Below are positions 5,639 to 64,000 of a stretch of 64,000 nucleotides of DNA, piece by piece. Positions within the stretch are counted from its first letter, which is position 1. Every line of letters begins with the position of its first letter. The notes under the pieces were generated by a model. The model did no database searches and was not told the origin of the DNA. It saw only the letters and a program-made list of their open reading frames with translations. The DNA is taken from positions 1,788 to 65,787 of the forward strand of contig CAZKPK010000002.1 of the NCBI GenBank assembly GCA_964554645.1, written 5' to 3'. Origin of the DNA: an uncultured Candidatus Saccharibacteria bacterium (lineage in GTDB: Bacteria; Patescibacteriota; Minisyncoccia; Phycocordibacterales; UBA9973). A program made the translations under genes and the position numbers.

Positions 5639-7366
5639 ATGTCTGAATTACTTGATATTTTGCTTGAAAAAAGAGGAATTGTGGATTCAGCGCAAGCGGA
5701 AATTTTTTTGAACCCAGATTACAAGCGAGATTTATACGACCCTTTTCTGATGAAAGATATGGAAAAAGCTTGTGTTCGTCTTTTTGAAGCAATAGAAGCA
5801 AAAGAAAAAATAGTTATTTACGCGGATTATGATTGCGATGGAATTCCGGGAGCCGTTATTTTGACTGACTTATTTAAGTTATTAAACATACCTGTTGAAG
5901 TTTACCCCCACACCAAATCTTTTGGTGTGGGGGTGTATATTCCGCAAAGAAATTCTGAAGGTTACGGGTTGAATCTTGATGCGATAAAAATTTTTGCCAA
6001 GTCTGAAGTGAAACTTCTAATAACCGTTGACCTTGGCATTACTGCAGTTGCCGAAGTGGCTCAAGCAGAGGTAGATGGTATCGATGTGATAATTACCGAT
6101 CATCATTTACCTCGCCAAAGCTCAAGCGACGGCGGGCCCGCCTTCGATCTTCCCAGAGCTTACGCGATTTTAAATCCAAAAGTGGATAATTATCCGGAAA
6201 AAATGTTGTGCGGGGCAGGTGTGGCATTTAAATTAGCGCAAGGATTCATAAAAAAGTATGGAGAATATTTTAAAATCAAAGATGGCGCGGAAAAATGGAT
6301 GCTGGATATGGCGGGTTTGGCGACGCTTTCTGATATGGTTCCGCTTCTGGGAGAAAACAGGGCTCTGGCGTATTTCGGAGTGAAAGTTTTGAAAAAATCT
6401 CCCCGTCCGGGCTTACAAAAACTTCTGGCAAAAATGAATATTGATCAGAGATATCTTTCGGAAGATGATATTGGTTTTATGATTACCCCCAGACTAAACG
6501 CGGCTTCCAGAATGGGCGATCCAATGCGGGCATTTGAACTTCTGGCGACCGAAGATGAAACGGAAGCCGGCGCGCTCGCAGACCATTTATCTGCAATAAA
6601 TGACGAAAGAAAAACTATCGTTACGGGAATTATGCGCGAAGTCAACAAGAAGTTTCAAAAGCGCGAGTCTCGGGAGGTAATAGTGATAGGCAATCCAAAT
6701 TGGCGCGTGGGAGTTTTAGGGCTGGTGGCCGGGAAAATTTCCGATGAATGTCAAAAACCTGTTTTTGTTTGGGGGAAGGATGAAAACGATTGCATTAAAG
6801 GTTCTTGCCGGAGCGATGGCTCGGTATCCATAGTAGAACTTATGACCGCGACCAGCGAATCATTCATAGATTTCGGCGGACACGAACTGGCTGGAGGATT
6901 TACTGTCCGCAATGATAAAATTCATTTTTTGGAAGAGGCTTTATCTGCGACTTTTAATAAAATGCAAAATTCAGAAAAAGGACAGTCCTTAAAGAATTCA
7001 AAAAGGACAGTCCTTGAAAAAGCTGATTTTGGTGGAGATTTAGATATTGTAAGTATGAAAAATTGGCGAGAAATAGAAAAAATGTCGCCTTTTGGTTTAG
7101 GAAATCCCAAGCCCGTTTTTCTCTTTCCTAATGTCAAAATAGAAAAAATAAAAAAATTCGGCAAAAATGGTTCTGGCGAACATCTGGAAATTACCTTTTC
7201 CGATTCTAGTAAAAATAAAGCGAAAGCTGTTTCTTTTTTTTCTAACATTGATTCTTTTAAAAACACTCTAGCAGAAGGATTAGCCGTGAGCCTGCTCGCT
7301 ACTTTTGATCTATCTAGATTTCGAGGCAGAGAAGAGTTAAGATTAAGAATTGTTGATATACTTTAA
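5639..7366 (+). CDS. recJ: single-stranded-DNA-specific exonuclease RecJ
   Basis: It has the DHH-family motifs DYDCDGI and ITDHH, and is about 575 aa long. Confidence 0.85.
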   Translation: MSELLDILLEKRGIVDSAQAEIFLNPDYKRDLYDPFLMKDMEKACVRLFEAIEAKEKIVIYADYDCDGIPGAVILTDLFKLLNIPVEVYPHTKSFGVGVYIPQRNSEGYGLNLDAIKIFAKSEVKLLITVDLGITAVAEVAQAEVDGIDVIITDHHLPRQSSSDGGPAFDLPRAYAILNPKVDNYPEKMLCGAGVAFKLAQGFIKKYGEYFKIKDGAEKWMLDMAGLATLSDMVPLLGENRALAYFGVKVLKKSPRPGLQKLLAKMNIDQRYLSEDDIGFMITPRLNAASRMGDPMRAFELLATEDETEAGALADHLSAINDERKTIVTGIMREVNKKFQKRESREVIVIGNPNWRVGVLGLVAGKISDECQKPVFVWGKDENDCIKGSCRSDGSVSIVELMTATSESFIDFGGHELAGGFTVRNDKIHFLEEALSATFNKMQNSEKGQSLKNSKRTVLEKADFGGDLDIVSMKNWREIEKMSPFGLGNPKPVFLFPNVKIEKIKKFGKNGSGEHLEITFSDSSKNKAKAVSFFSNIDSFKNTLAEGLAVSLLATFDLSRFRGREELRLRIVDIL

Positions 7367-7368
7367 AT

Positions 7369-7857
7369 ATGTCCAAGAAAGAAGAAATAAAAATTTATAC
7401 CGATGGGGCGGCGAAGGGGAATCCGGGACGTGCTGGCTGGGGCGCTGTATTTTTATTTGGCAAAAAAATCTTGGAAATCGGCGGGGGAATAGATCATGCC
7501 ACAAATAATCAAATGGAATTAACTGCTCCAATAGAGGCTTTAAAATATGTTAAAGATGGTATGTCAAAGAGACACTTTGACATTAAGGAAATAGAAATCA
7601 TTTCTGATTCAAAATATGTGATTTTGGGAATCACTGAATGGATTTTTAATTGGCAGAAAAATAATTGGCGAAATGCCAATAAAAAACCGGTTTTGAATCG
7701 CGAACTCTGGGAAGAACTCTATGAGCTTACGCAAGAATTAAAGCCGAAATGGACGTATGTCAAAGGACACAATGAAAATAAATATAATGACCGCGCCGAT
7801 TTCATCGCCACCAGTTTTGCCGAAGGCGAACCAGTGGAATTTCTAAATGCGAGATAA
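7369..7857 (+). CDS. rnhA: ribonuclease HI
   Basis: It has YTDGAAKGNPG and the acidic DEDD residues (NNQMEL, SDSKYV, NDRADF). Confidence 0.85.
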   Translation: MSKKEEIKIYTDGAAKGNPGRAGWGAVFLFGKKILEIGGGIDHATNNQMELTAPIEALKYVKDGMSKRHFDIKEIEIISDSKYVILGITEWIFNWQKNNWRNANKKPVLNRELWEELYELTQELKPKWTYVKGHNENKYNDRADFIATSFAEGEPVEFLNAR

Positions 7858-8152
7858 AATTTTTTATGCAATTTGTTTTGGTTTTATTTTCGGAGTGCTG
7901 TTGCGCTCTTTTTTATTTATGAATGTTTATTTTGCTATTTTATTTAGTTTAATTTCTTTTGCACTGATTTTATTTTTCTTCGTCCGCCGGAGCTTTAGCG
8001 AAGGAGGATCCTTTACTTCTTTTAATAAATGGGGAATTATAACTTCCGTTTTTGTTCTGACATTCTCACTTGGAATTTTTAGATTTCAGATGCTTGTAGC
8101 CATCCGACGACTCCAATTCGATATTAGTTTTCCACAGCTATGCTTGCACTGA
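7847..8152 (+). pseudogene. displaced and diverged 5' fragment of comEC (101 codons)
   Basis: Its N-terminus (MRDKIFYAICFGFIFGVL...WGIITSVFVLTFSLGIFRFQM) is a diverged duplicate of the first ~80 codons of the full-length ComEC ORF at 8865. It then diverges from that gene and terminates. Confidence 0.6.
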
Positions 8153-8178
8153 AGGTCATCTTAAGTTAAACTTTAAAC

Positions 8179-8445
8179 ATGATTACAAAAACAAAAAATA
8201 TGACCAATATTATTGGTTTTAAGGAGCTTCGACAAAATGCGGATAAATATATTTCTGCCGTAGAAAAAGGCAGGACTTTTACTGTTGTTCGGCGTTCAAG
8301 ACCAATATTTAAAATGATGCCAGTTGACGAGTGGGGGGATGAAGGAGTCTGGGAAACGGTTGTTGATTTCACTAAATTAAAAAAAGGCGGAGTAAAAGCC
8401 GAGGAAGTTCTTGCCAGCTTGAAGCGTCTCGCGGCATATGAATAA
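8179..8445 (+). CDS. Phd/YefM-family antitoxin
   Basis: An 88-aa protein matching the Phd/YefM antitoxin fold pattern (NIIGFKELRQNADKYISAVEKGRTFTVVRRSRPIFKMMPVDEW). Confidence 0.6.
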   Translation: MITKTKNMTNIIGFKELRQNADKYISAVEKGRTFTVVRRSRPIFKMMPVDEWGDEGVWETVVDFTKLKKGGVKAEEVLASLKRLAAYE

Positions 8446-8671
8446 AATTGATAAATTTCTTTTTAAACTGGACAAGAAAATTCGCGCAGTTGCGATGGTG
8501 GCAATTGCTTCAATTTTAAAAAGAGATACATCAATGCTCAATATAAAAAATTAAAAGGAAGTGAAAATAGATATAGAGTGAGAGTTGGTAGAATACGAAT
8601 TACCTTTGACCAGACAAATTACGGAAACAAAATACAGGATATTTCTTTCCGCAACGATAATACATATAACT
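8438..8671 (+). pseudogene. RelE/ParE-family toxin gene, frameshifted
   Basis: The ATG overlaps the antitoxin stop codon (tATGaataa). Frame 1 reads MNKIDKFLFKLDKKIRAVAMVAIASILKRDTSMLNIKN and then stops. A +1 shift at an A-run (ataaaaaattaaaagg) continues as KKLKGSENRYRVRVGRIRITFDQTNYGNKIQDISFRNDNTYN, which has the toxin signature (KkLkGsen.YRvRvG.yRi). Neither piece reaches 60 aa, so neither appears in the ORF track. Confidence 0.55.
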
Positions 8672-8794
8672 AATATCAAAAATTGACAGCCGGGTGAAGA
8701 TGATGACATTATTGCGTTTAGGTAAAGGAAATTAAGGGCTTTTTAACAATCCCGACGACCATCGGGACAAGTTTAATAATTTGACAATTGGGTC

Positions 8795-8822
8795 CCTGGC
8801 CATTTTATGGCCAGGATTTTTG
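8795..8822 (+). terminator. intrinsic terminator-like hairpin (cctggccat-ttt-atggccagg followed by a T-run)
   Basis: A perfect 9-bp stem with a 3-nt loop is followed by atttttggg. It lies downstream of the toxin-antitoxin cassette. Confidence 0.5.
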
Positions 8823-8864
8823 GGTATTATGCCGAAAATTTCGTAAATTTGTTATACTTTTTAA

Positions 8865-10361
8865 ATGCGAGATAGAATTTTTTATGCAATTTGTTTTGGT
8901 TTTATTTTTGGGGTGCTTTGGCGCTCTTTTTTGTTTGTGAATTTTCACTTTATTGTTTTACTGGGTGTAATTTCTTTTGTTTTATTTTTATTTTTTAGTT
9001 TTATTTCAAGAAATAACTGGGGAATAATTATCTCTGTTCTGGTTCTGACATTCTCACTTGGAATTTTTCGTTTTCAGATGGTTGATGTTCCTGCGCCTAA
9101 TATTTTCGAATCACACGTAGGGAAAAATGTTTCTTTTTCTGGAAAAATTATCGATGAACCAGATATGAGAGAAAATAATCAAAAATTAACTATTGAGGTA
9201 GAGGTTGGTGAAAACCCACGCCAAGGCGGGGCAAGCAAAACAAAAATTTTAGTCACGGTTAATTTTGATGAGGATTTTAGATATGGAGATGAAGTTAGTT
9301 TTTCCGGGACATTAAAAAAACCGGAGAATTTTGTAACCGATCAAGGCAAGGATTTTGACTATCTAAATTATTTAAGGAAAAACGGGATTCATTACGTGAT
9401 GAATTACGCAGAGGCTGAAATTATTTCACGGGACCATGGAAATAAAATTAAAAGCGTCCTGTTCTTTGTGAAAGAAAAATTTTTGGAGAAAATCAATTTT
9501 GCTATTAAAAATCCTGATAATTTGCTAATGGGCGGGCTTATTTTAGGAGAGAAAGCGTCTTTTAGTCAAGAGTTGCGACAGAAATTTATCGATACTGGCA
9601 CGATCCATATTGTGGCGCTTTCCGGATACAATGTGACGATTGTCGCTGAATGGATTATGAAAATATTCGCGTTTTTGCCTCGCAATCTCGGCTTTGGCGC
9701 GGGCCTTCTCGGAATTTTGCTTTTTGTCGTGATGGCCGGCGGGCAATCTACCGCTGTCCGAGCTGGGGTGATGGCGTCTTTAGCGCTTATTGCGCGCGCG
9801 ACCGGCCGGAATTACGATGTCGCGCGCGCTCTTCTTCTGGCAGGCGTAGCAATGATTTTGTTAAATCCTTTTATTCTCGTCTATGATGTTTCTTTTCAGC
9901 TTTCTTTTATCGCGACAGTCGCCGTGATTTTTCTGGCGCCGAGAATTGAAAAATATTTTTTATGGGCGCCAGATTATTTTAAACTTCGGGATATTATATC
10001 AGTGACTTGCGCCGCTTATATTTTCGTTTTGCCTTTTATTTTATACAAAATGGGCAATCTTTCTTTAGTTGCTTTGCCGGCCAATATTTTAATTCTTCCT
10101 TTCATACCAATCACGATGATTTTCGGGTTTTTCACCGGTTTGGCGGGACTTATTTCATACATATTTGCCGTGCCATTTGGCTTTGTCTCATATTTGTTTT
10201 TGCATTATGAACTTTGGGTTGTTGATTTTTTCTCTAGTCTTCCGTTTGCTTCTTTTTCTCTTCCCAATTTTCCGCTTTTTCTCACAATTTTAATCTACCT
10301 CTATTTTATTTATAGACTTTTTGGGAGGAACATCAAAAGTTTTTTTACTGAATTCCAATAA
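8865..10361 (+). CDS. comEC: ComEC/Rec2 DNA-uptake channel: N-terminal and competence (membrane) domain, encoded separately from the MBL domain
   Basis: The protein is polytopic, with many hydrophobic helices. Its ...GTIHIVALSGYNVTIVA... region is typical of the ComEC Competence domain, and its 498-aa length fits that domain alone. Confidence 0.7.
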   Translation: MRDRIFYAICFGFIFGVLWRSFLFVNFHFIVLLGVISFVLFLFFSFISRNNWGIIISVLVLTFSLGIFRFQMVDVPAPNIFESHVGKNVSFSGKIIDEPDMRENNQKLTIEVEVGENPRQGGASKTKILVTVNFDEDFRYGDEVSFSGTLKKPENFVTDQGKDFDYLNYLRKNGIHYVMNYAEAEIISRDHGNKIKSVLFFVKEKFLEKINFAIKNPDNLLMGGLILGEKASFSQELRQKFIDTGTIHIVALSGYNVTIVAEWIMKIFAFLPRNLGFGAGLLGILLFVVMAGGQSTAVRAGVMASLALIARATGRNYDVARALLLAGVAMILLNPFILVYDVSFQLSFIATVAVIFLAPRIEKYFLWAPDYFKLRDIISVTCAAYIFVLPFILYKMGNLSLVALPANILILPFIPITMIFGFFTGLAGLISYIFAVPFGFVSYLFLHYELWVVDFFSSLPFASFSLPNFPLFLTILIYLYFIYRLFGRNIKSFFTEFQ

Positions 10362-10372
10362 AACTTGTTGCA

Positions 10373-10465
10373 GGCGTACTTTTTAGAAAGCCTTGCGCAG
10401 GCGGACGCGCCGAGCAGTTCGCTGGCATAGCAATGCCAGATAGATTGCTTTATAAAAAGTATGCC
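10373..10465. repeat. GC-rich palindromic module (outer 19-bp imperfect stem plus inner ctggcat...atgccag hairpin) at a convergent gene junction
   Basis: The core GTTCGCTGGC-hairpin-GCCAGATAGATTGCTTTATAAAAAGTATGCC is repeated in inverted orientation at 36359-36413. Both copies lie between convergent 3' ends. Confidence 0.5.
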
Positions 10466-10556
10466 AAGAAAGAGTTTTATTGAATTGAACCTTTTTTAAA
10501 TTTTCCTCTACAACAACTTCCCCCGCCTTCGCTAAAGCTACGGACGGGCAGGCAGT

Positions 10557-11159
10557 TTAAGATGTTGCCTCAATAAAGTTTTTCTCAATAATCTCCCAGT
10601 TGATGTTGTCGAAGAATGCGTCAACATATTTTTTCTTATCGGTCGCATAATCTAGATAAAAAGAATGTTCCCACATATCAATTCCAAAAATCCATTTGAG
10701 TCCGGTCAAGTGTCCGAGATGTTGTTCATCAATCCAAGCATTGAGAAGTTTTTTATTGATTGGGTCATAATAAAGCACTGCCCAGCCGATGCCTCGGGTC
10801 ATCGCGATTGTTTTGAAGCGCGCGAACCAAAGGTCAACACTGCCCCATTCTTCGATCATCGCTTTTTTGAGCGGACTTTCTCCCTGCATTGTTTTTGCTC
10901 CACCTTCTAAACTTTTGAAATAATATTCATGATTTCTCATTCCATCAAATTCAAAAGCGAAACGGCGTCCCAATTCACCCACCACATACGGCGCAAATGT
11001 GTCTTCCTTTGCATAACCTTCATATTCTGGGATTTTTTCCAAAATTAAATTAGCATTTTTCACATAACCGGCATAAAGTTTCAAATGCTCTTCGATTGTT
11101 TTTTTTGAAATACCCTTTAGCTCTCCAATCTTGAATTTCATTTCTTCAAATTTTTTCAT
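10557..11159 (-). CDS. Fe/Mn-family superoxide dismutase-like protein
   Basis: The C-terminal GIDMWEHSFYLDY motif matches the SOD DxWEHAYY motif. The N-terminal helical region contains the conserved His, and the 200-aa length fits. Confidence 0.65.
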   Translation of the reverse strand: MKKFEEMKFKIGELKGISKKTIEEHLKLYAGYVKNANLILEKIPEYEGYAKEDTFAPYVVGELGRRFAFEFDGMRNHEYYFKSLEGGAKTMQGESPLKKAMIEEWGSVDLWFARFKTIAMTRGIGWAVLYYDPINKKLLNAWIDEQHLGHLTGLKWIFGIDMWEHSFYLDYATDKKKYVDAFFDNINWEIIEKNFIEATS

Positions 11160-11173
11160 GCTAACATTATAAC

Positions 11174-12049
11174 ATGATTAGGAATTTTAAAAAACACAGT
11201 CTGTTAGTTTTTACGTTTTTTCTTCTTTTCATCACTATGTTTCTTTTTTATCTTGATTTTCGAGGTTTCGACAAAGGTTTTACTTTTGCGATGCTGGATA
11301 TCGGTCAAGGCGATGCGCTTTTTATAGAGTCACCGACTGGAACACAGGTGTTAGTGGATGGAGGACCGCCGAGAAAAATATTAAGCCAGCTCTCGCGAGT
11401 TATGTCGCCCTTCGATCGCACAATTGATGGCATCATTATTACTAACCCGGACCAGGATCACATTGGCGGATTTTTGGACGTTTTGAAAGTGTATAAAGTA
11501 GATAAAGTATTTGAGCCCGGCACCTACAATGATTCCAAAACTTATCAGAATCTCAAGACAGAAATAAAAAATAAAAACATTCCCAATATTTTAGCGAGAA
11601 GAGGAATGCGGCTGAATATCGGCGGCGGGGCAGTGATTGATATTTTATTTCCCGACCGGGATGTTTCCACTTGGGCTAATAATGATGGTTCAGTTGTTGC
11701 TAAACTTACCTACGGCAAAACTTCCGTAATGCTTACCGGTGATGCTACGACCGAAACGGAGAAAATAATTTTAGCGGAAAATCCTAAAGCGATGTTAGCA
11801 AGCACTATTTTAAAAGTCGGACATCACGGCTCGCGCACTTCCACTGGTTCTGCATTTGTGCAAGCGGTGACCCCGACTTACGCGCTCATTTCCGACGGCA
11901 AGGACAATAAATATGGGCATCCGCACCAAGACATCTTGAATACTTTAGAGAGATTAGGTGTAAAGATTCTCCGAACTGATATTTTAGGGACAATCATATT
12001 ATCTTGTGATAAGATGGGTACATGCGAGACAAGCAGGTGGAAAAATTGA
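11174..12049 (+). CDS. ComEC C-terminal metallo-beta-lactamase (MBL) domain protein, encoded as a separate ORF
   Basis: After an N-terminal TM helix it reads MLDIGQGDALFIE...VLVDGG...IIITNPDQDHIGG, the HxHxDH-type MBL motif. This is the ComEC lactamase_B-like domain. Confidence 0.7.
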   Translation: MIRNFKKHSLLVFTFFLLFITMFLFYLDFRGFDKGFTFAMLDIGQGDALFIESPTGTQVLVDGGPPRKILSQLSRVMSPFDRTIDGIIITNPDQDHIGGFLDVLKVYKVDKVFEPGTYNDSKTYQNLKTEIKNKNIPNILARRGMRLNIGGGAVIDILFPDRDVSTWANNDGSVVAKLTYGKTSVMLTGDATTETEKIILAENPKAMLASTILKVGHHGSRTSTGSAFVQAVTPTYALISDGKDNKYGHPHQDILNTLERLGVKILRTDILGTIILSCDKMGTCETSRWKN

Positions 12050-13266
12050 TAAAGGCGGAAGAGAAACGACAACGGGAAGGCTTGGAACTCATTCCCTCTG
12101 AAAATTATGTTTCCGAAGATGTTTTGAAGGCGAACGGTTCTGTGTTCACTAATAAATATTCTGAAGGTTATCCGGGCCGGCGTTACTATGGAGGACAGGA
12201 TTTTACCGATGCGGTTGAACGCCTGGCGATTGAACGCGCCTGCAAGTTATTCAACTGCAAGTTTGCTAATGTCCAGCCGCACTCCGGCGCCCCGGCCAAC
12301 TTGGCTGTTTATGCCGCGTTGCTTGAGCCCAGAGATACAGTCTTGGGTATGGATCTTTCCCATGGAGGACATTTGACTCACGGACATCCAATGACTCTTC
12401 CGGCGAAGATTTATAAATTTGTCGCGTATAAAATGAAAAATCTGGAGACAGGAGAGATAGATTATGCAGAGCTTCGCCGAATAGCCTTAGAAAAAAAACC
12501 AAAAATAATTCTCGCTGGTTTTTCCGCCTATTCCCGAACGCTGGATTACAAAAAATTTGTGGAAATTGCCCGGGAAGTTGGCGCTATTACGATGGCGGAT
12601 ATGGCGCACATTGCCGGGCTTATCGCCGCCGGGGTTCTGCGCAATCCATTTGCTGATGGTTTTGATATTATTACTTCCACTACGCACAAAACTCTTCGCG
12701 GTCCAAGAGGAGGCATCATCCTTGTTCGCGAGAATGAAGAAATCGCCAAGAAAATTGACAAAGCAATTTTCCCCGGTATCCAGGGCGGTCCGCATATGCA
12801 CATTATTGCCGCCAAAGCCGTTGCCTTTGGAGAAGCAATGACGCCGAAATTTAAAAAATACTCGCAACAAATTTTGAAAAACGCCAAGGCAATGGAAGAA
12901 ATCTTGCGCAAGAATAATATTCGCATGATCGGTGGCGGCACCGACAATCATCTGATTTTAGCGGACGTTTTTGGTTCTCTGGGGGTGACCGGCAAAGAAG
13001 CGCAGACGGTGCTGGATGAAGTAGGTATTACGCTTAATATGAATGCGATTGCGGGGGACACCAGAAAACCTCTTGATCCTTCCGGTATCAGATTCGGCAC
13101 TCCGGCCATTACCACCCGTGGTTTTAAAGAGAAAGAATGCGCAAAAGTAGCCGAGCTGATGATTAAAGTTTTAAAAAACAAAGACAATGAAAAAATAAAA
13201 GAATCCGCGCGCCAAGAAATAAAAGCTTTAGCCAGAAAGTTTCCGATACCAAAAAGATTTGTGTAA
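12022..13266 (+). CDS. glyA: serine hydroxymethyltransferase
   Basis: It has LELIPSENYVS and the THKTLRGPRGG PLP-lysine region. Its 414-aa length fits. Confidence 0.9.
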   Translation: MRDKQVEKLIKAEEKRQREGLELIPSENYVSEDVLKANGSVFTNKYSEGYPGRRYYGGQDFTDAVERLAIERACKLFNCKFANVQPHSGAPANLAVYAALLEPRDTVLGMDLSHGGHLTHGHPMTLPAKIYKFVAYKMKNLETGEIDYAELRRIALEKKPKIILAGFSAYSRTLDYKKFVEIAREVGAITMADMAHIAGLIAAGVLRNPFADGFDIITSTTHKTLRGPRGGIILVRENEEIAKKIDKAIFPGIQGGPHMHIIAAKAVAFGEAMTPKFKKYSQQILKNAKAMEEILRKNNIRMIGGGTDNHLILADVFGSLGVTGKEAQTVLDEVGITLNMNAIAGDTRKPLDPSGIRFGTPAITTRGFKEKECAKVAELMIKVLKNKDNEKIKESARQEIKALARKFPIPKRFV

Positions 13267-36148: not shown

Positions 36149-36349
36149 ATGAAGCAAGATTATTTTTCAGCCAACAATATAAAATATATAGACTACAAGG
36201 ATGTTGAAATTTTAAAGAAATTTTTAAATCCTAATGGCAAAATTATGAGCCATAAGCGTACTGGCGTGACCGCCAAAAATCAGCGCGCTTTAGCTTCAGC
36301 TATCAAACACGCAAGATTTTTTGGTTTGTTGCCTTTTGTGGTGAAATAA
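36149..36349 (+). CDS. rpsR: 30S ribosomal protein S18
   Basis: A 66-aa protein with the S18 signature ([28 protein letters not shown]). Confidence 0.85.
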
Positions 36350-36358
36350 CTCTTTTTT

Positions 36359-36413
36359 GGCATACTTTTTATAAAGCAATCTATCTGGCCAAGCTTGGCC
36401 AGCGAACTTCTCA
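36359..36413. repeat. inverted-orientation copy of the GCCAG-hairpin module; here the hairpin is the perfect palindrome ctggccaagcttggccag
   Basis: It matches 10417-10465 in reverse complement. It lies between the convergent rpsR and efp 3' ends. Confidence 0.5.
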
Positions 36414-36501
36414 TCGCTCAAAAAAATAATAAATGGATTACCATTTTTATTTTCTAAGCTCCTGCGAAAGGCTTTCTAAAAAGTATGCCTGCAACGAGTT
36501 T

Positions 36502-37850: not shown

Positions 37851-38975
37851 TTAGGTTTCTTCCGCGAATTTCTTCTTGATTTCTTTCAAAATCTGATCTG
37901 AGATTTTTTTATTTTCTTTCAGAAACGTGCGAGTGGAATCATAACCCACGCCCAGTTTTACCTTGTCCGCCGTAGCTTTGGCGGAGGAGGATTCACTCGG
38001 CATACTCGCCTTCGCCGAGGCTATGACGGGCAAGTAGAAATACGAATTCCCAGTTTTTTCGATTATTTTAAATCTTTCTCCGAGCGCCATAATTTCACCT
38101 TCTTTAGAAATACCCTCATTGTAAATAATATCAAATTCTGTCTGTTTGAATGGAGCGGAGACTTTATTTTTCACCACTTTGACACGAGTGCGTGAGCCCA
38201 CGACTTCCTCTCCTTTTTTGATTTGGGCGATTTTGCGGATATCCAGCCGGACGGAGGTATAAAACTTCAACGCCTTGCCTCCCGGAGTCGTTTCCGGGTT
38301 GCCGAACATCACTCCAATTTGCATTCTGATTTGATTTATAAAGATAACAACGGTTTTGGATCTGGCGACAATGGCAGTCAATTTGCGGAGCGCTTGAGAC
38401 ATCAGCCGGGCTTGTTTGCCGACATGATAGGCGCCCATATCGCCTTCGATTTCGTCTTTTGGGGTGAGCGCCGCCACCGAATCGATCACAATAACATCGA
38501 TCTTGCCGGTGCGCACCAAGCTCTCTACTATTTCCAGCGCCTGTTCGCCGTTATCTGGCTGGGAAATAAGCAATTCATTTATGTTCACTCCGAGCTTCTT
38601 TGTATATTCAGGATCCATTGCGTGTTCAGCGTCTATATATGCGCAAACGCCCCCTAGTTTCTGCGCTTCCGCCACGATATGAAGGGACAATGTTGTTTTT
38701 CCGGAAGATTCAGGTCCGAATATTTCAATGATTCGGCCACGCGGTATTCCGCCTACCCCCAAAGCCATATCCAGGCCGATAGAACCGGTCGGAATTACAT
38801 TCACATCTACTTTCGGCGAGTCGCCAAATTTCATTATTGATCCTTCTCCAAACTTGGTTTGGATTGATTTTAGGGTGTCTTCAAGCACCGCTATTCCCAT
38901 AGTTTTATTTTCTTTTTTTTCCCCGCCTGCAACGCTATGCGTAGCATTGCGGGCAGGTTTTTTCTTATTTATCAT
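37851..38975 (-). CDS. recA: recombinase RecA
   Basis: It has the Walker A motif [10 protein letters not shown] and [13 protein letters not shown] (a loop L2 region). The N-terminus extends beyond the usual RecA start, so the true start may be internal. Confidence 0.9.
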
Positions 38976-57996: not shown

Positions 57997-58011
57997 ACTG
58001 CCAAAATTTTG

Positions 58012-58075
58012 GTTTGTAGACGCCGGACGTCTCCAAGCAGACGTCTTCAAACATTCGGACGTCCAACGTCCGAAT
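58012..58075. repeat. cluster of GACGTC-containing palindromes/hairpins, including a 10-bp stem cattcggacg...cgtccgaatg
   Basis: gtagacgccggacgtct is related to the in-frame palindrome at 18681-18705. Confidence 0.5.
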
Positions 58076-58155
58076 GAGGAGTACCCTTTAGGGGGAGGTG
58101 GAAAATTCATCCACCCCGCCCCCGATGAACATCAGGGCACCCCTCAAGAGGGGAA
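58074..58155 (+). repeat. four-hairpin GC-rich structured element, copy C (hairpin 1 replaced by the preceding GACGTC hairpin)
   Basis: It reads gaggagtaccc...gggggaggtgga-aaattca-tccaccccgcccc-cgatgaacatcaggg-cacccctcaagaggggaat and is followed by a terminator. Confidence 0.55.
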
Positions 58156-58165
58156 TCTATTAACA

Positions 58166-58199
58166 AAAAATCCCTCATCCGCCAGCTGGCGGAAGGGTT
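58166..58199 (+). terminator. intrinsic terminator (ccctcatccgccagc/gctggcggaaggg stem followed by T6)
   Basis: Seen directly in the sequence. Confidence 0.6.
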
Positions 58200-58291
58200 T
58201 TTTGTTTTGCCCTTGACTTTTAAATTACTTTGTATATACTTTAGGTATTCTCCTTCGTTCTGAGCTAATACAGAACTACGGACGGACAAGT

Positions 58292-58561
58292 ATGAAAACA
58301 TCAGCATTAAGTATTAAAATAGATCCAAAAGTAAAGTATGAAGCGCAGAAAGTTGCTGACCAGCTTGGTTTTTCTCTTTCTGCTATTATAAACGCTTCTC
58401 TTAAGAATTTAACTCGTTCTAAAACAGTATCTTATTCACTTCTTGAACCTACTCCACTTTTAAAAAATGCTATTAATTCTGCTCGCAAAGACAGAGTTCT
58501 TGGGAAGTCTGTCGGGCATTTTAGGTCTTCTTCAGAAATGATGAAATCACTTTTGTCATAA
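58292..58561 (+). CDS. RelB/DinJ-family antitoxin, orphan (no adjacent toxin ORF)
   Basis: It reads LSIKIDPKVKYEAQKVADQLGFSLSAIINASLKNLTRSKTVSYSLLEPTPLLKNAINSARKD, which follows the DinJ pattern (rIDedlK.qA..vl...GLt.S.ai...L.kva.e..lPf.l.ePn). It is preceded by a TTGACT-16 nt-TATACT promoter. Confidence 0.6.
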   Translation: MKTSALSIKIDPKVKYEAQKVADQLGFSLSAIINASLKNLTRSKTVSYSLLEPTPLLKNAINSARKDRVLGKSVGHFRSSSEMMKSLLS

Positions 58562-58648
58562 TCTTTGTGAGCTATTTTCTTAATTCCAGATAGGGTTTAA
58601 GGCGCTAGCGGTTGGGGAGAGGCAGCTCCCTTATTAAAGTAGACGCAC

Positions 58649-58657
58649 TTATCCACA
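58649..58657 (+). promoter_or_regulatory. TTATCCACA box within the conserved promoter module of the giant surface-protein gene
   Basis: See the entry for 53458-53466; it is the same module. Confidence 0.5.
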
Positions 58658-58700
58658 GGGCAAGGGTGGCGTAATAAATTAGTGGTATAATAAAAAGATT

Positions 58701-61700
58701 ATGAAGAAAATATTTTCTCGTTTTTGTTTTGCAGTAATTTTATTAATAATTTTTTCGTTTTCCTTTTTTAATATTTCTGATGCTATTGTAACTACTCTTA
58801 TCACCGATCTCACTCCGTTGTTCGGTGGACAAAAGCTCAAAGCTTCTAGTGATAATACCGCGGTGCTTAAAGTACAATTTGGTTCTGACTCAAATGCTGA
58901 AACCTTAACTTCAATTAAAGTAACTTTTGTTTCGGTTACTGGTTGTGCTGGTTGTTGGACCTCTGGAGCTGCTACTTCGTCAGAGTTGGCTGATTTAGCC
59001 ACAACGAACGGTGGTATTCAGCTTTGGAAAGATGCGGGCGCGGCCGGATTTCAAGGCCAGGGGACAGACACACAAGTCACTTTAGCCGCCACTCCGCAAT
59101 ATGCTTCAGCTACAACTTTCATTATTACTCCCGCTTCCGCGCCAACGCTTACGACTGATGATATTTATTTTATTGTTCTTAAAACTGATTCAACTGGATT
59201 AACTCATAACAACGCCTTCACTATCGCGGTGGCGGCCAATGGAGATATTATCACTTCTGCCAGCAATCCAGTTATCACTGCGGTTACTAGTCGCACCATT
59301 ACTATTGATACTACCGCTCCAACATTAACTTCCGCTTCTAGTTTTCCTGCCAATGGTGCCACCGTGCCTATCAGCACTTTTCCTCATATGACTTTTTCGG
59401 AACAACTGGATCAAACAACTTTAACTTCAGCTAATATTTCTTTAGCTGCCGGAAGCGCTGTTAATGGCGCGATTCGTCTATTTCCAGACGGATTTGATTT
59501 TGTGGTTTCCAGTCCACCTACTTATGCGATCGGCTCCAGATTTGCCAAACTGACCACCGCTGCAACCGCTTTTTTCCAAATTGCCGGCACCAATCCGATT
59601 AGCCCGCAAGGAAGTTATTCAGCGCCAGTGGTGGGCGATATTGTAATTTCCCAAAGAGAAACTTTTCCAGCTGAGCTTGGTTTAGTCACTGCTTCTGGTT
59701 TAACTTCCGGCACATTTGCGGTCAACGGTTTTCCAGCCTTCAATTCTCAACAGATTACCAAGGTTGCCATACCAGCCGCTACCGGCGCTGTCACTGCGTC
59801 TACCGTGGTAACCACTGGGGACATTATTGTAGTAAATACCACAGCCAATCCGACTTCACAAAGATATGACTGGCACATTGTAACTACTGGCGCAGCTGTG
59901 AATCATGCCACAGACTTAAGATTAGATGGAGCAAGCGGTGTGCCTGCATATGTTTCCGGTTCCAGATTTTCAACCATTGCTCCGAATGACACTTCAGCAA
60001 TTAATGCTTCAAATGCAGTGGTTGGAACCGCCAATAGTGGGATTGATTTTGTTGTTGGCGACTTAGTTTTTGCTAAAGTTACTGCCAATGCTGACAATCT
60101 TGGCGTTTATGCTTGGCATGTTGTTACTACAGCTCAGAATATTACAACCGATATTGCGCCAACCACTTTGCGTTTGGATGGCAATACTACCGGCGCTCCG
60201 ACTTTTGTCGCCAGTTCGCAAGTTTCTAAAATTACTCCAGCGGCGCAGGGTATTGCGGAGGGCGCGGGCGTTGATACCGCTACCGCTTTTTCTCTAGGAG
60301 ATATAGTTTTGGCGAAAACGACAGCCAATGCCTCAAACAATAACGCTTACAACTTTCACATTATTAACAATGGAGCAACCGGCGCAAACTCCGCTAGCTT
60401 GCGCTTTGATAATGTGCCGGGAAACTTAATCACTGCCACCACTTATACTTTGACGATGACGACCGGAATTAAAGACTCGGCTGGTAATCCTTTGGCTGCC
60501 AACAATACTGTAACCTTTACTACTGGTTCTACCAGTACAACGAATACTACACCGCCGTTTATTCAGTCCAGCCAGCCACAATCGGGCTCACAAACTCATC
60601 CGATCAGCGCGCCAATTAAGTTAACTTTCAGCGTGGATATGAAGACGACAGACGGCAACAGCGGCGCTAACTCTGTGACTAATCCCGCCAATGTAGGATT
60701 GTTTACTGATAATTTTGGTACGCCGGGGACCGCCATTGCGACCACCAATACATATGATTCCGCCAGCAAAACTGTAACCATCACTCCTTCAACCGCTATG
60801 AACAGTGGAGTGGCGGCCAATCTGACTGCTAGCACTGCTTATGTAGTCAAGGTGCTTCCTGCTACGCAAAGCAGTACGGGTACCGCTTTCCCCCCAACCC
60901 CGCCTTTACCTTTCAAAACTCCTTCCGGCGCGGCGGATACAACCGCGCCAACAGTGCTGGGAGTAAATCCTGCCAATGCGGCCACCGGCGCGGCTCTCGG
61001 CACGGTGGTGACCGCCGGTTTTTCCGAGGATATAAATCCAGCGACCATTACAACTTCTACCGTTACCTTAAGCGGGGGGATTACTGGCACTGTTACCTAT
61101 AATCCGCAGAGCCGTAGCGCTTCTTTTGCTCCTTCTGCCGCGCTTACCGCAAACACCAGTTACACCTTTACGATAGTTTCCGGGGCGAGTGGAGTAAAAG
61201 ATTTGTCTGGCAATGCTCTGGCCTCTAACTACACTTCCACTTTTACCACTACCGCGACCGCTGACGAAGTCAAACCCTTTTTGACATTTGCTAATGCGGA
61301 TGACTTTAGCGTGGCGGTTACTTTCTCCGAACAAGTGAAGTCCGGCGGAGGTCCGAATGCAGCCGACAATATTGCCAACTATACTTTAGAAAGTCCGGTT
61401 GGTTCAACTATAGCGCTGGGAGGAAAGACTGTTACCTATGAAGCAGGAACAAAAACTGCGCGTATTACAGGTTTAAGTTTGCAAAATGGCGCTACTGCAA
61501 CTTACAAAGTGACAGTTCTTCCATTTGTTCAAGACTTGGCTGGTAACGTGATGGACGACACCAATGTTCCTCCGCCTAGGAACACTCAATTTGGAACAGT
61601 TGCCAGCGCTTCCGCTACCGGTGGTCAAATCGGTCCGGGCGGGGGCGCGATTGATGCCTCTATGCAAGGAATGAATCCAAGTCGAGTGATGCCGATGAGT

Positions 61701-64000
61701 CGGGGAGCGGGAGCCACTTCCAACTATCATGTGGAATTTTTAGCCAGCGCTTCCGTTCCGGCTACCGGCCAAATTGTTCTGACTTTCCCCGCCGGCTTTA
61801 CTCTGGCGAACGCCGCAGCGGTAAGTACGGCGAATAGTTTTTGCAATGCAGATTTAAATGGTCCGGCCACCGGTGTTCCGCTCATTGATACCGTGGTTGG
61901 CAATAATGACGCGGGGACTGTGACTATTACCACTACCGCCGCGGCCGCTACTGGCGCTAATGCCTTTTTGTGTCTGGACCTTTCCGGTATTGTCAATTCA
62001 ACAGTGCCTTCAAGCAGCGGTTATACCGTTACTATTCAGACTAAAAATACCGCCACCGCTAACCGAGCCACTCTGCAGAATATAACCACCGCGTCTTTCT
62101 ATCTAGGAACAGCCGGTACTCGCACCTTGACGGTGAATGTATTTAAAGACGCCAACAGCAATGGCACTAATGATGATAATGAAGGAATAGATGGTGTTAC
62201 TGTTTATTTATTTTCTCCGGCTACCGGCGGGCAGGAAGCAACTACGGCCACTAATGTAATTGAAGGCAAGGCAACATTCTTAAGTTTGGCTGACGGCGAT
62301 TATATGATTGGATTAAAGCCGACGGATGCGATTAATGTGGCCTTTAATTCCGCGCCCCAACCTTTTACAGTTTCGGCTACTAGTTTAACCAAAAACTTTG
62401 CCTTGAGTAATGCGGTGGCTAAAACTATTTCCGGGACGATTACGGTTGCTAGCGGATTAAATAATACCAAAGTTGACGTGTTTGCCTCTTCTCCCAATGG
62501 CTTTGCTAAAAAGACTCTCACTTTACTTACCGGTTCCAATAATTATTCTCTGCCGGTCAACACCAATACTTCTTACAATATCGGAATAGGTCCTTATATG
62601 CCGGAATCTTCCTTCACTCCCGGTTCTCCGCCTCCACCACCTCCAGACTTCACTTTTATGCCGCCACCGAATCTTCAAGTGGCAGTGGCTTCTGCGAGCG
62701 TAACTGGTCAGAACTTTACTTTATCAACTGCTAATAAGTTTATTACCGGAACGGTAGTTGATTCTTCGGGTACTGGAATATCCAATGCTGGTCTATTTTG
62801 CCGTCCTGTTTCCAGTTCAACAACCGGAGGCACATCGGGTGGTTTCGGCACGGGCGGACAGACCAATACCAGCGGAGCATTTTCTCTTAAAACAATAGAA
62901 GGAGTTTACCTCTGCGGAGTCTTCAAACCGGGTATGCCGCCGGTTGCCGAGAAACAAATCACCGTTGGAGCGCTCGCCAATACTCCAACTACGCTAGCTT
63001 TCGTGCTTGATGCCGCCACCACTTTGACTATCACTGGAACTATCAAAGATGATTCAGGCAATGCTATTCCTTACGCCGGAGTTTCCGGCCGCAAGGTTGT
63101 TTCTACTTCCAACACCACAGCCGTAGGAGGCGATAGCGGAAACTTTGTCGGCGGACCGACTGATGCTAATGGTGCTTACACTTTGTATGTTTCTGCCGGC
63201 ACATGGGTTGTGGAAGCTTTTGCTCCGGGATTCGGGCGTTTGGGAACCAAGACTATTACCATTACTACCAGCAGTTCTTCCGGTCAGGATTTCTCCGCGC
63301 AAAACTTAGCTATGGGAACTATTACTGGTACGGCTACGCAAGCATTAACTGCGGTGCAGGGTGTAATGGTACGGGCGGAAAGTTCTGATCAAACCAGCGG
63401 CAATATGGCTGTTTCCGGCTCGGACGGCACTTACAGTATCAAGGTTCCAGCCGGCACCTACTCGCTTGTTTGTTATTTCCCGGGAGTGGGTGAAGGCACA
63501 CCAGTAACTGGAATTACTGTCACAGCCAACACTACTACTTCTGGTAAAAATTGCACGCAATTAGCTCCTATCACTATCACAGTTAATGTTACTGACGGAA
63601 CTAATGCTATTGCCAATGCCGGGGTGGAAGTTCGCGACTCCAGTGGCCGCGGCAACTTTACTTCTACTTCAACCACTACGGGTGCCAATGCTGTTTATAC
63701 TCTGACTGTTCCGCCCGGCACTTACACAGTTCGTGTAGGTCATCCGGCTTACGGCAGTGTGGGAACAACCACTGGTGTTAACACTACGCGCACAATTACC
63801 TATACGGCCTCCGCTGGAGTGCTATACGCCGTGACTGGAACAGTGACCGGCGATGGTACGGCGCTTTCCGGGGCTTGGGTGTCTTTGAATGGCACACCGA
63901 CCGGACAGACCAATACTATATTCTTAGGCGGGCAAACTATTGCAAACGGAACATTCAGTATTAGCGTGCCACCGGGCATATACAAAGTTCGCGCGGACAA
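58701..64000 (+). CDS. giant secreted surface (S-layer/adhesin-like) protein; 5' end present, runs off the window end (more than 1766 codons)
   Basis: Frame 0 from the ATG at 58701 is open to position 64000; this was checked codon by codon at multiple points, and the track lists no frame-0 plus-strand ORFs here. It has a signal peptide (MKKIFSRFCFAVILLIIFSFSFFNISDA) and repeated bacterial Ig-like modules (DTTAPTV...NPANGATGV..., SGNAL). Later there are carboxypeptidase-regulatory-like beta-sandwich repeats (GTVVDSSGTGISNAGL..., TGTIKDDSGNAIPYAGV...). All track ORFs in this span are antisense or off-frame shadows. Confidence 0.75.
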   Translation, partial: MKKIFSRFCFAVILLIIFSFSFFNISDAIVTTLITDLTPLFGGQKLKASSDNTAVLKVQFGSDSNAETLTSIKVTFVSVTGCAGCWTSGAATSSELADLATTNGGIQLWKDAGAAGFQGQGTDTQVTLAATPQYASATTFIITPASAPTLTTDDIYFIVLKTDSTGLTHNNAFTIAVAANGDIITSASNPVITAVTSRTITIDTTAPTLTSASSFPANGATVPISTFPHMTFSEQLDQTTLTSANISLAAGSAVNGAIRLFPDGFDFVVSSPPTYAIGSRFAKLTTAATAFFQIAGTNPISPQGSYSAPVVGDIVISQRETFPAELGLVTASGLTSGTFAVNGFPAFNSQQITKVAIPAATGAVTASTVVTTGDIIVVNTTANPTSQRYDWHIVTTGAAVNHATDLRLDGASGVPAYVSGSRFSTIAPNDTSAINASNAVVGTANSGIDFVVGDLVFAKVTANADNLGVYAWHVVTTAQNITTDIAPTTLRLDGNTTGAPTFVASSQVSKITPAAQGIAEGAGVDTATAFSLGDIVLAKTTANASNNNAYNFHIINNGATGANSASLRFDNVPGNLITATTYTLTMTTGIKDSAGNPLAANNTVTFTTGSTSTTNTTPPFIQSSQPQSGSQTHPISAPIKLTFSVDMKTTDGNSGANSVTNPANVGLFTDNFGTPGTAIATTNTYDSASKTVTITPSTAMNSGVAANLTASTAYVVKVLPATQSSTGTAFPPTPPLPFKTPSGAADTTAPTVLGVNPANAATGAALGTVVTAGFSEDINPATITTSTVTLSGGITGTVTYNPQSRSASFAPSAALTANTSYTFTIVSGASGVKDLSGNALASNYTSTFTTTATADEVKPFLTFANADDFSVAVTFSEQVKSGGGPNAADNIANYTLESPVGSTIALGGKTVTYEAGTKTARITGLSLQNGATATYKVTVLPFVQDLAGNVMDDTNVPPPRNTQFGTVASASATGGQIGPGGGAIDASMQGMNPSRVMPMSRGAGATSNYHVEFLASASVPATGQIVLTFPAGFTLANAAAVSTANSFCNADLNGPATGVPLIDTVVGNNDAGTVTITTTAAAATGANAFLCLDLSGIVNSTVPSSSGYTVTIQTKNTATANRATLQNITTASFYLGTAGTRTLTVNVFKDANSNGTNDDNEGIDGVTVYLFSPATGGQEATTATNVIEGKATFLSLADGDYMIGLKPTDAINVAFNSAPQPFTVSATSLTKNFALSNAVAKTISGTITVASGLNNTKVDVFASSPNGFAKKTLTLLTGSNNYSLPVNTNTSYNIGIGPYMPESSFTPGSPPPPPPDFTFMPPPNLQVAVASASVTGQNFTLSTANKFITGTVVDSSGTGISNAGLFCRPVSSSTTGGTSGGFGTGGQTNTSGAFSLKTIEGVYLCGVFKPGMPPVAEKQITVGALANTPTTLAFVLDAATTLTITGTIKDDSGNAIPYAGVSGRKVVSTSNTTAVGGDSGNFVGGPTDANGAYTLYVSAGTWVVEAFAPGFGRLGTKTITITTSSSSGQDFSAQNLAMGTITGTATQALTAVQGVMVRAESSDQTSGNMAVSGSDGTYSIKVPAGTYSLVCYFPGVGEGTPVTGITVTANTTTSGKNCTQLAPITITVNVTDGTNAIANAGVEVRDSSGRGNFTSTSTTTGANAVYTLTVPPGTYTVRVGHPAYGSVGTTTGVNTTRTITYTASAGVLYAVTGTVTGDGTALSGAWVSLNGTPTGQTNTIFLGGQTIANGTFSISVPPGIYKVRAD

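Follow-up and report, generated by a model that had tools for sequence, protein, structure and literature searches.

Among the elements known to integrate at the ends of genes and to supply a replacement end are phages and islands at the 3' ends of tRNA and transfer-messenger RNA (tmRNA) genes, the A118-like prophage in comK of Listeria, and AbaR in comM of Acinetobacter. For recombination of DNA taken up by transformation, both homology-facilitated illegitimate recombination and Campbell-type integration were described in Acinetobacter and Streptococcus pneumoniae. Here, a stretch of 64,000 nucleotides (nt) from an uncultured Nomurabacteria genome, belonging to the Candidate Phyla Radiation (CPR), was analysed (hereafter "the window"; all positions are window coordinates), with the junction between rnhA and comEC, the gene of the DNA-uptake channel, as its subject. 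At this junction the first ~250 nt of comEC occur twice, and a toxin–antitoxin cassette lies between the two diverged copies. The copies are alleles of two related comEC lineages, and the arrangement may have arisen when DNA of a related species was taken up and recombined into the chromosome.

The locus resembles the gene-end integrative elements in that diverged direct repeats from the end of the target gene flank the insert, the target gene remains intact, and a competence gene is hit. It differs from them in three respects: the insert is only ~1 kb long and holds no integrase or other element genes, the duplicated segment of ~250 nt is like a second functional allele, and in the candidate excision product the crossover lies at the repeat's outer end. 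With recombination following transformation it shares the pairing of a homologous arm, provided by rnhA or the 5' end of comEC, with a non-homologous joint at 8096/8097, as well as RecA and ComEC uptake in the host; the donor is proposed to be a related species, and the likeness is in this case read from the sequence. Duplication of the anchor is the outcome of a Campbell-type event, being unusual for homology-facilitated illegitimate recombination.

Two diverged copies of the comEC start

The features that define the duplication are the following.

7369 to 7857, plus strand: rnhA, encoding RNase HI (Pfam PF00075, E 4.4e-38)
7840 to 8096, plus strand: copy A, the truncated 5' end of a comEC allele, with 83 homologous codons (repeat search, alignment)
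7858 to 7890, plus strand, equal to 8876-8908: block i, 33 nt identical in both copies, the longest perfect identity
7979 to 8008, plus strand: in-frame indel of 30 nt in copy A, GC-rich, encoding FVRRSFSEGG, not in copy B (alignment)
8858 to 9084, plus strand: copy B, the repeat with the first 220 nt of comEC (repeat search)

An earlier note on this DNA described the 5' end of comEC as duplicated and diverged, and the present analysis agrees. The repeat search returned direct repeats in two blocks (83% identity between 7840-7977 and 8858-8995, 81% between 8012-8096 and 9000-9084), and over 222 aligned coding nt the copies are 80% identical, with 44 differences. Local alignment of the cassette flanks at comEC gave a score of 136, compared with 21 +/- 2.6 for shuffled sequences. 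The homology begins ~6 nt before the ATG and ends at 8096/9084, after codon 83; identity peaks at the two ends of the repeat (97% and 93%) and falls to 67-73% in the middle. Besides block i, a second block, of 27 nt, is identical in both copies, and both fall where the codons of comEC are best conserved. The pair of block i and the positions 10435-10437/36357-36359 are the only 31-mers repeated within the window. The last codons of rnhA, which the same note had counted as part of the repeat, are indeed included, though merely by way of the 11 nt by which the end of rnhA, with its stop codon, overlaps the start of copy A at its ATG. Copy A is contained in an open reading frame (ORF) of 101 codons (7847-8152), the final 18 of which are not comEC and read through into the promoter region of the cassette; alone, this ORF matched no Pfam or NCBIfam model.

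The locus was compared with 37 loci from a scan of GTDB species representatives, nearly all of them Nomurabacteria/Paceibacterota, and with the closest genome found, L064 (38 genomes). Neither the cassette nor a second comEC start is present in any of the 38. The order recJ-rnhA-comEC-sodA(-)-metallo-beta-lactamase (MBL) gene is kept in about 30 of the 37 GTDB loci, and rnhA and comEC abut or overlap in most of the 38 relatives, other genes lying between them in a few. The overlap of 11 nt is found again at L016, L022, and L064, the last of which is without the insert. Differing inserted genes are carried at the rnhA|comEC and recJ|rnhA junctions of several relatives, which marks these junctions as an insertion hotspot. 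Junction inserts were seen at L013, L015, L017, L020, L031, and L034-L038, and also at L005 (9000-11100); by eye, their ORFs resemble acetyltransferases, Nudix hydrolases, and PaaX/Cas2-like regulators, and a second toxin–antitoxin pair is possibly among the junction genes of L005.

The differences between the copies identify them as xenologous. The ratio of nonsynonymous to synonymous divergence (dN/dS) for the two copies is 0.30, dS being 0.54 (bootstrap 95% interval 0.14-0.61, P(>=1) = 0.001, P(>=0.55) = 0.05). Mean conservation among orthologues is 0.43 at the sites where A and B differ and 0.81 at those where they are identical (p 7.5e-11). Both copies are similar to nine orthologues at the same level, and with L064 as the outgroup 15 changes are specific to A and 21 to B. 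Because dN/dS is low, the two copies differ where orthologues also vary, and copy A shows no acceleration, A and B are alleles from two related comEC lineages, and one of the two is probably foreign. Under neutral evolution, a dead copy would show an excess of replacements and usually stop codons; only 17% of neutral simulations stayed stop-free, and the frame of copy A is open through 44 substitutions. Copy A thus diverged mostly within the functional comEC of another lineage, at roughly the distance of a sister species. The statement of the earlier note that the duplicates are no simple target-site duplication is supported by these equal rates and by a dN/dS like that of two functional alleles.

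It could instead be supposed that the comEC start was duplicated in tandem, in place, when the cassette inserted, and that the dead copy A then diverged over a long time. This would accord with A and B being each other's closest sequences: they share 7 derived sites, and each is 72-75% identical to L064 over the segment, compared with the 80% between them, L064 itself being ~80-83% identical over the rest of the locus. However, a dN/dS of ~0.55-0.6 would be expected if one copy were neutral, and the observed value lies below it (P = 0.05). Copy A is neither accelerated in rate nor closed by stop codons, no related species among the 38 genomes shares the duplication and the cassette, and contig L002, described below, has no single-nucleotide polymorphism (SNP) over 2.2 kb and apparently no insert. 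This explanation is very unlikely and, judged from the substitution pattern, A and B did not diverge in place.

Equally, copy A might be taken for a conserved gene of a small membrane protein (7847-8152), as its 101 open codons, its start coupled to rnhA, its three hydrophobic segments, and its purifying-like divergence would allow. However, the earlier note had counted relatives carrying the 7847 fragment as an independent small gene as evidence that would refute its reading, and none of the 38 genomes has such a gene or any second N-terminal comEC copy. A protein search with copy A returned only fragmentary N-termini of ordinary ComEC, <=61% identical, and the last 18 codons extend into the promoter region of the cassette. 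We regard this possibility as highly improbable.

A possible insert-free state of the junction is seen in Logan contig L002 (SRR12113385, a sibling metagenome). It is 100% identical to window positions 5673-7890, including the TAA of rnhA, and beyond 7890 it follows the exact sequence of copy B for 55 nt, after which a Nextera adapter begins. The switch from the context of copy A to copy B falls within block i, inside the first 45 nt. A Logan unitig from 3 samples, L042, is 100% identical to window positions 7861-8905 and corresponds to the loop expected between the two copies of block i in a k = 31 graph. If the insert-bearing allele were the only source of L002, two sets of k-mers would have to be missing, the one that runs into copy A and the one that comes from the spacer. 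On balance, L002 is somewhat more likely to be a real molecule in which rnhA leads into copy B, and so a candidate insert-free allele, than a k-mer or polymerase chain reaction (PCR) chimera. If L002 is real, then insert-bearing and insert-free alleles would coexist in backgrounds identical over 2.2 kb.

The same 33-nt identity, which confuses graphs of k = 31, raises the question whether the arrangement in the window is itself an assembly artefact merging two strains. Against this, the same order is found in two independent NCBI assemblies, and L042 joins copy A, the cassette, and the region upstream of copy B at 100% identity in its three samples. A groundwater metagenome-assembled genome (GCA_016186455.1, contig JACPLP010000014, Candidatus Nomurabacteria, Patescibacteria/CPR) differs from the window only at 24 nt of sodA and at a single SNP, and the same proteins are encoded on a second NCBI contig of 73.9 kb. 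Among the explanations considered, an artefact is the one we find hardest to credit.

The 30-nt insert of copy A was also considered as proof of foreign origin, and this was rejected: the motif occurs elsewhere in the same genome, and the insert therefore does not decide which copy is native. A homologous insert is present in the same loop of comEC of L024. It is worth describing this GC-rich mini-element of ~30 nt (GTCCGCCG.AGCTTTAGCGAAGGAGGAT) in its own right. Within the window it is found at 7979-8008 (plus strand), 10515-10555 (minus strand), and 37960-38000 (plus strand), and in other loci at L024 6130-6175, L011 ~4223, and L031 ~1748. It lies in frame within coding genes and also in one intergenic region; in copy A it reads RRSFSEGGSF, and in recA it sits within an extra segment of ~20 residues. 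Further GC-rich in-frame inserts (PARPPDWSGAGG, GGPASGWE) are present in ComEC of relatives. The mini-element is reminiscent of the in-frame palindromic elements of Rickettsia.

The toxin–antitoxin cassette, here and at other loci

The insert between the two copies consists of the following parts.

8097 to 8125, plus strand: left junction filler of 29 nt between the end of the comEC homology and the cassette
8126 to 8178, plus strand: region upstream of the antitoxin within the cassette (AGTTTTCCAC...ATCTTAAGTTAAACTT), shared with the cassettes of other loci and presumed to be a promoter/operator
8179 to 8445, plus strand: Phd/YefM antitoxin, intact, 88 residues (PF02604, TIGR01552)
8438 to 8673, plus strand: RelE-like toxin pseudogene with a -1 frameshift at the A6 run 8545-8550
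8674 to 8849, plus strand: spacer, holding a terminator-like hairpin
8850 to 8858, plus strand: extended -10-like box TGTTATACT, read from the sequence, 6 nt before the comEC ATG

The cassette is like type II Phd/YefM-RelE/ParE modules, with the antitoxin upstream of a small toxin, an 8-nt overlap of the two genes, and a patchy occurrence across loci. The antitoxin exceeds the cutoffs of both families (PF02604: 30.2 bits, cutoff 29.8, E 3.8e-7; TIGR01552: 25.3 bits, cutoff 20.8, E 6.9e-6), and the nearest of its 316 homologues are 86-91% identical and reside in other CPR genomes. The toxin starts at 8438, overlapping the antitoxin stop at 8445, a layout repeated at L044, L051, and L060. It carries the KxLKG...YRxRVGxxRI motif, in which it is like type II RelE toxins; it differs from them in being frameshifted and matched by no Pfam or NCBIfam model, its family being suggested only by a profile of three toxins that matched PDB 3bpq_B, RelE3, with E of 1.6e-4 over 26 residues. 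These data weakly suggest a RelE-like toxin. The run at 8545-8550 has 6 A here and 7 in the intact homologues of 77 residues, and the Logan unitig found in 3 samples carries the same frameshift. The sequence around the frameshift (8541-8556) reads ATA AAA AAT TAA, and a -1 slip on A_AAA_AAT would regain the full RelE-like frame. A simple deletion of 1 nt is nevertheless likelier than programmed -1 frameshifting, because the relatives have one A more. The content of the insert as first described, a Phd/YefM antitoxin, a frameshifted toxin, and a terminator, is thereby upheld by the family matches, the change from A7 to A6, and the hairpin at 8795-8815, which is followed by a T-run.

The origin of the remaining parts of the insert was sought as well. 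Neither the spacer (8667-8864) nor the filler (8097-8125) has a homologue in any fetched locus. A remnant of the end of htrA in the spacer was apparent only and failed in alignment. Short repeats flanking the cassette in the window were looked for, and CCGACGAC, which both flanks contain, scores no better than chance (16, against 14.7 +/- 2.2). A scan of 7000-12500 against Rfam gave nothing meaningful. The box TGTTATACT could be a promoter on the side of the cassette for a leaderless comEC transcript; comparable -10-like boxes stand right before the comEC ATG at L005 and L018/L025.

Other CPR genomes carry related cassettes, at two or three different loci. The segment 8126-8676 is 77-79% identical at the DNA level to cassettes of other groundwater CPR genomes, which lie either upstream of tkt, encoding transketolase (L043-L050), or downstream of a gene for an HtrA-like protease (L051, L052, L060, and L063), once with a gene of the major facilitator superfamily (MFS) following. 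In every one of these contexts the cassette stands alone amid housekeeping genes, with no recombinase called nearby and no island genes, and a scan of viral contigs for the antitoxin gave no match. At L051 a direct repeat of 22 nt from the 3' end of htrA, with 2 mismatches, lies on either side of the cassette (~497-518 and ~1109-1130), which scores 34, the shuffles having a mean of 18.4 and a maximum of 33. L060 has a weaker and more diverged repeat of the htrA end at the same position (~60-85 and ~660-685). In both, the repeated segment corresponds to the last ~8 codons of htrA (LE.AKDN and the stop), and it parallels the duplication of the comEC 5' end. A duplicated 5' end of tkt was sought in the tkt context (L044 and others) and was not found.

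Routes by which the insert may have arrived

The insert might have been gained by RecA-type recombination, with no dedicated integrase, after the uptake of DNA from a related species whose comEC had the cassette upstream. This is the explanation we favour, with middling confidence. It assumes that donor DNA with the cassette just upstream of comEC was imported by natural competence and that a segment of ~1.0 kb was recombined into the rnhA|comEC junction, made up of the cassette, a spacer of 185 nt with the terminator and the promoter-like box, and an extra comEC start of ~250 nt. The 5' end of comEC would have served as the homology arm in RecA-type integration. Integration would then have followed one of two courses: a Campbell-type single crossover of a circularised fragment, most likely in the 33-nt block, or homology-facilitated illegitimate recombination, in which 8096/8097 would be the illegitimate joint. 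In the proposed outcome comEC stays intact, is severed from the recJ-rnhA operon by the terminator, and is driven by the incoming promoter, while the 101-codon comEC stub stays translationally coupled to rnhA. The toxin would have been inactivated later. The direct repeats would permit RecA-mediated loss of the insert, leaving an insert-free junction such as that of L002. The insertion is small and probably recent.

Natural transformation that depends on comEC was shown experimentally in Saccharibacteria of the CPR (PMC10633639). The window itself encodes genes of uptake and recombination, namely comEC as two genes, recJ, and recA (37851-38975). Neither an integrase nor any other recombinase was found in the insert, in the called genes up to ~21 kb, or among 10 further ORFs.

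Several points weigh against recombination of imported DNA. The circular intermediate of 1 kb is hypothetical, and neither microhomology nor another signature is readable at the 8096/8097 joint. L002 may be a chimera, since the repeat it spans exceeds the k = 31 of the assembler by only 2 nt and its end is a Nextera adapter. The distance to L064 is about equal for A and B and favours neither as the native copy. No donor with the order cassette-spacer-comEC emerged from the 37 species of GTDB, from the protein collection, or from the JGI contigs, and the protein search gave no comEC nearer to copy A than copy B is. Finally, the present lack of an integrase is compatible with one that was deleted. 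Other searches for alleles gave the following: a metagenome scan with a 28-mer of block i returned two other species with ordinary rnhA-comEC junctions, and exact-protein look-ups of variants of ComEC, RnhA, and the copy-A ORF led to single-member clusters with no variant allele.

The main rival is the explanation put forward in the earlier note, a decayed island that integrated site-specifically. It is assumed that an element with an integrase entered the 5' part of comEC, bringing its own promoter and copy B as a replacement, and that only the toxin–antitoxin genes were kept. Toxin–antitoxin modules can outlast the elements that carried them. Such islands would explain why the duplicates are diverged, why the target gene is intact, and why a promoter-like box and a terminator lie on the side of the element; the identical blocks of 33 and 27 nt could be the cores of attachment (att) sites, and the duplicated gene end that flanks the cassette at htrA in L051 and L060 points the same way. 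However, no recombinase is present in the insert or the examined ORFs of the window, the related cassettes stand elsewhere without neighbouring island genes, and the scan of viral contigs was empty. An island also predicts that copy A is native and that the crossover lies at the inner boundary, whereas the candidate empty site L002 has copy B next to rnhA, with its junction at the outer end of the repeat. These results do not demonstrate the mechanism proposed at first, yet the island is a serious alternative, though less likely than recombination of imported DNA.

If recombination of imported DNA is the correct explanation, then a selfish toxin–antitoxin module would have entered a CPR chromosome by means of the transformation and recombination machinery of the host, and it would have done so at the gene of the DNA-uptake channel, which was kept intact by a spare 5' end and a promoter. 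A wider proposal, tentative and on the whole unlikely, is that the cassette family spreads among CPR bacteria without a recombinase of its own, captured gene ends acting as homology arms for transformation and RecA. In that case, a cassette would insert beside the same gene in a new host and could be removed again, and diverged duplicates of gene ends would be expected, like those of the 5' end of comEC in the window and of the 3' end of htrA in L051/L060, as well as polymorphism of presence and absence within a population. Gene flow from one CPR species to another could be examined tractably by read mapping in the existing groundwater datasets.

ComEC encoded by two genes and minor features of the window

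In the window, the genes follow the order HIT (minus strand), recJ, rnhA, the 101-codon ORF, the antitoxin, the broken toxin, comEC, sodA (minus strand), the MBL gene, and glyA. The part of the locus downstream of the insert comprises three genes.

8865 to 10361, plus strand: comEC, N-terminal oligonucleotide/oligosaccharide-binding (OB)/DUF4131 domain and Competence channel, 498 residues (PF13567, PF03772)
10557 to 11159, minus strand: sodA, Fe/Mn superoxide dismutase (PF02777, PF00081), in the same place in ~30 related genomes
11174 to 12049, plus strand: C-terminal MBL (nuclease) domain of ComEC, 291 residues, with its own N-terminal membrane helix (PF00753, TIGR00361)

Known ComEC/Rec2 of the Bacillus subtilis type (structures 30bt and 9vc6) has three domains in one protein. 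All three are present here; the difference is that they are shared out over two genes, the break falling between membrane helices, and that in Nomurabacteria an opposed sodA separates the two. That ComEC is encoded by two ORFs on either side of sodA had been pointed out before, and domain matches in both ORFs support it. The protein of 498 residues covers TIGR00361 positions 59-361 and residues 10-441 of PDB 30bt_A (801 residues in total), and the MBL protein covers TIGR00361 positions 427-661 (E 3.8e-44) and 30bt_A residues 516-787 (E 1.6e-33), and with them the membrane helix just before the MBL domain. As judged from these alignments, the two genes together are complete with no domain missing, and the parts sum to a full-length ComEC as was suggested. 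The split is not peculiar to this locus: two intact ComEC ORFs are found at all 32 loci where both genes were found, and the split is conserved in >30 related species and thousands of database proteins. A search with the MBL domain gave 6,842 homologues, of which the top 120 are all 286-297 residues long, and several homologues are already named ComEC/Rec2 by NCBI or JGI. The split is therefore a trait of the whole lineage, neither a sequencing error nor specific to one locus, and it is partly annotated already; no paper on it was found in the literature searched. A channel and a nuclease made as separate membrane-anchored proteins, although not new to databases, may aid work on the interplay of ComEC domains.

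The intervening gene is not constant. At L026 and L041 the two ComEC genes are adjacent, without sodA between them, and at L026 (8450-12350) the loss of sodA is accompanied by four unrelated genes gained after the MBL gene. The metal motif of the MBL domain, TNPDxDHxGG, was present in 22/23 of the motifs detected by a scan of relatives. The first His of HxDxDH (THPDADH in the solved ComEC structures) is replaced by Asn in nearly all Nomurabacteria, in which the lineage differs from three-domain ComEC, and His is kept only in L026. SodA itself varies in length: a segment of 24 nt (11090-11113) is present in the window and four Logan contigs, giving a protein of 200 residues, and is missing from the GCA_016186455.1 contig (192 residues).

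Two further observations concern the rest of the window. At its far end (~58000-64000) there is hardly any ORF of at least 100 residues, and an rRNA operon or some other kind of non-coding DNA may occupy this part. Between comEC and sodA (10362-10482) lies an element of ~120 nt with inverted arms of 36 nt, and a second, inverted copy is found at 36348-36500. It has no match in Rfam. In other species (L021 5008-5125, L024 7556-7670) the element is 88-94% identical, compared with ~65-70% for coding DNA, and this suggests either a mobile element like a miniature inverted-repeat transposable element (MITE) or a structured RNA.

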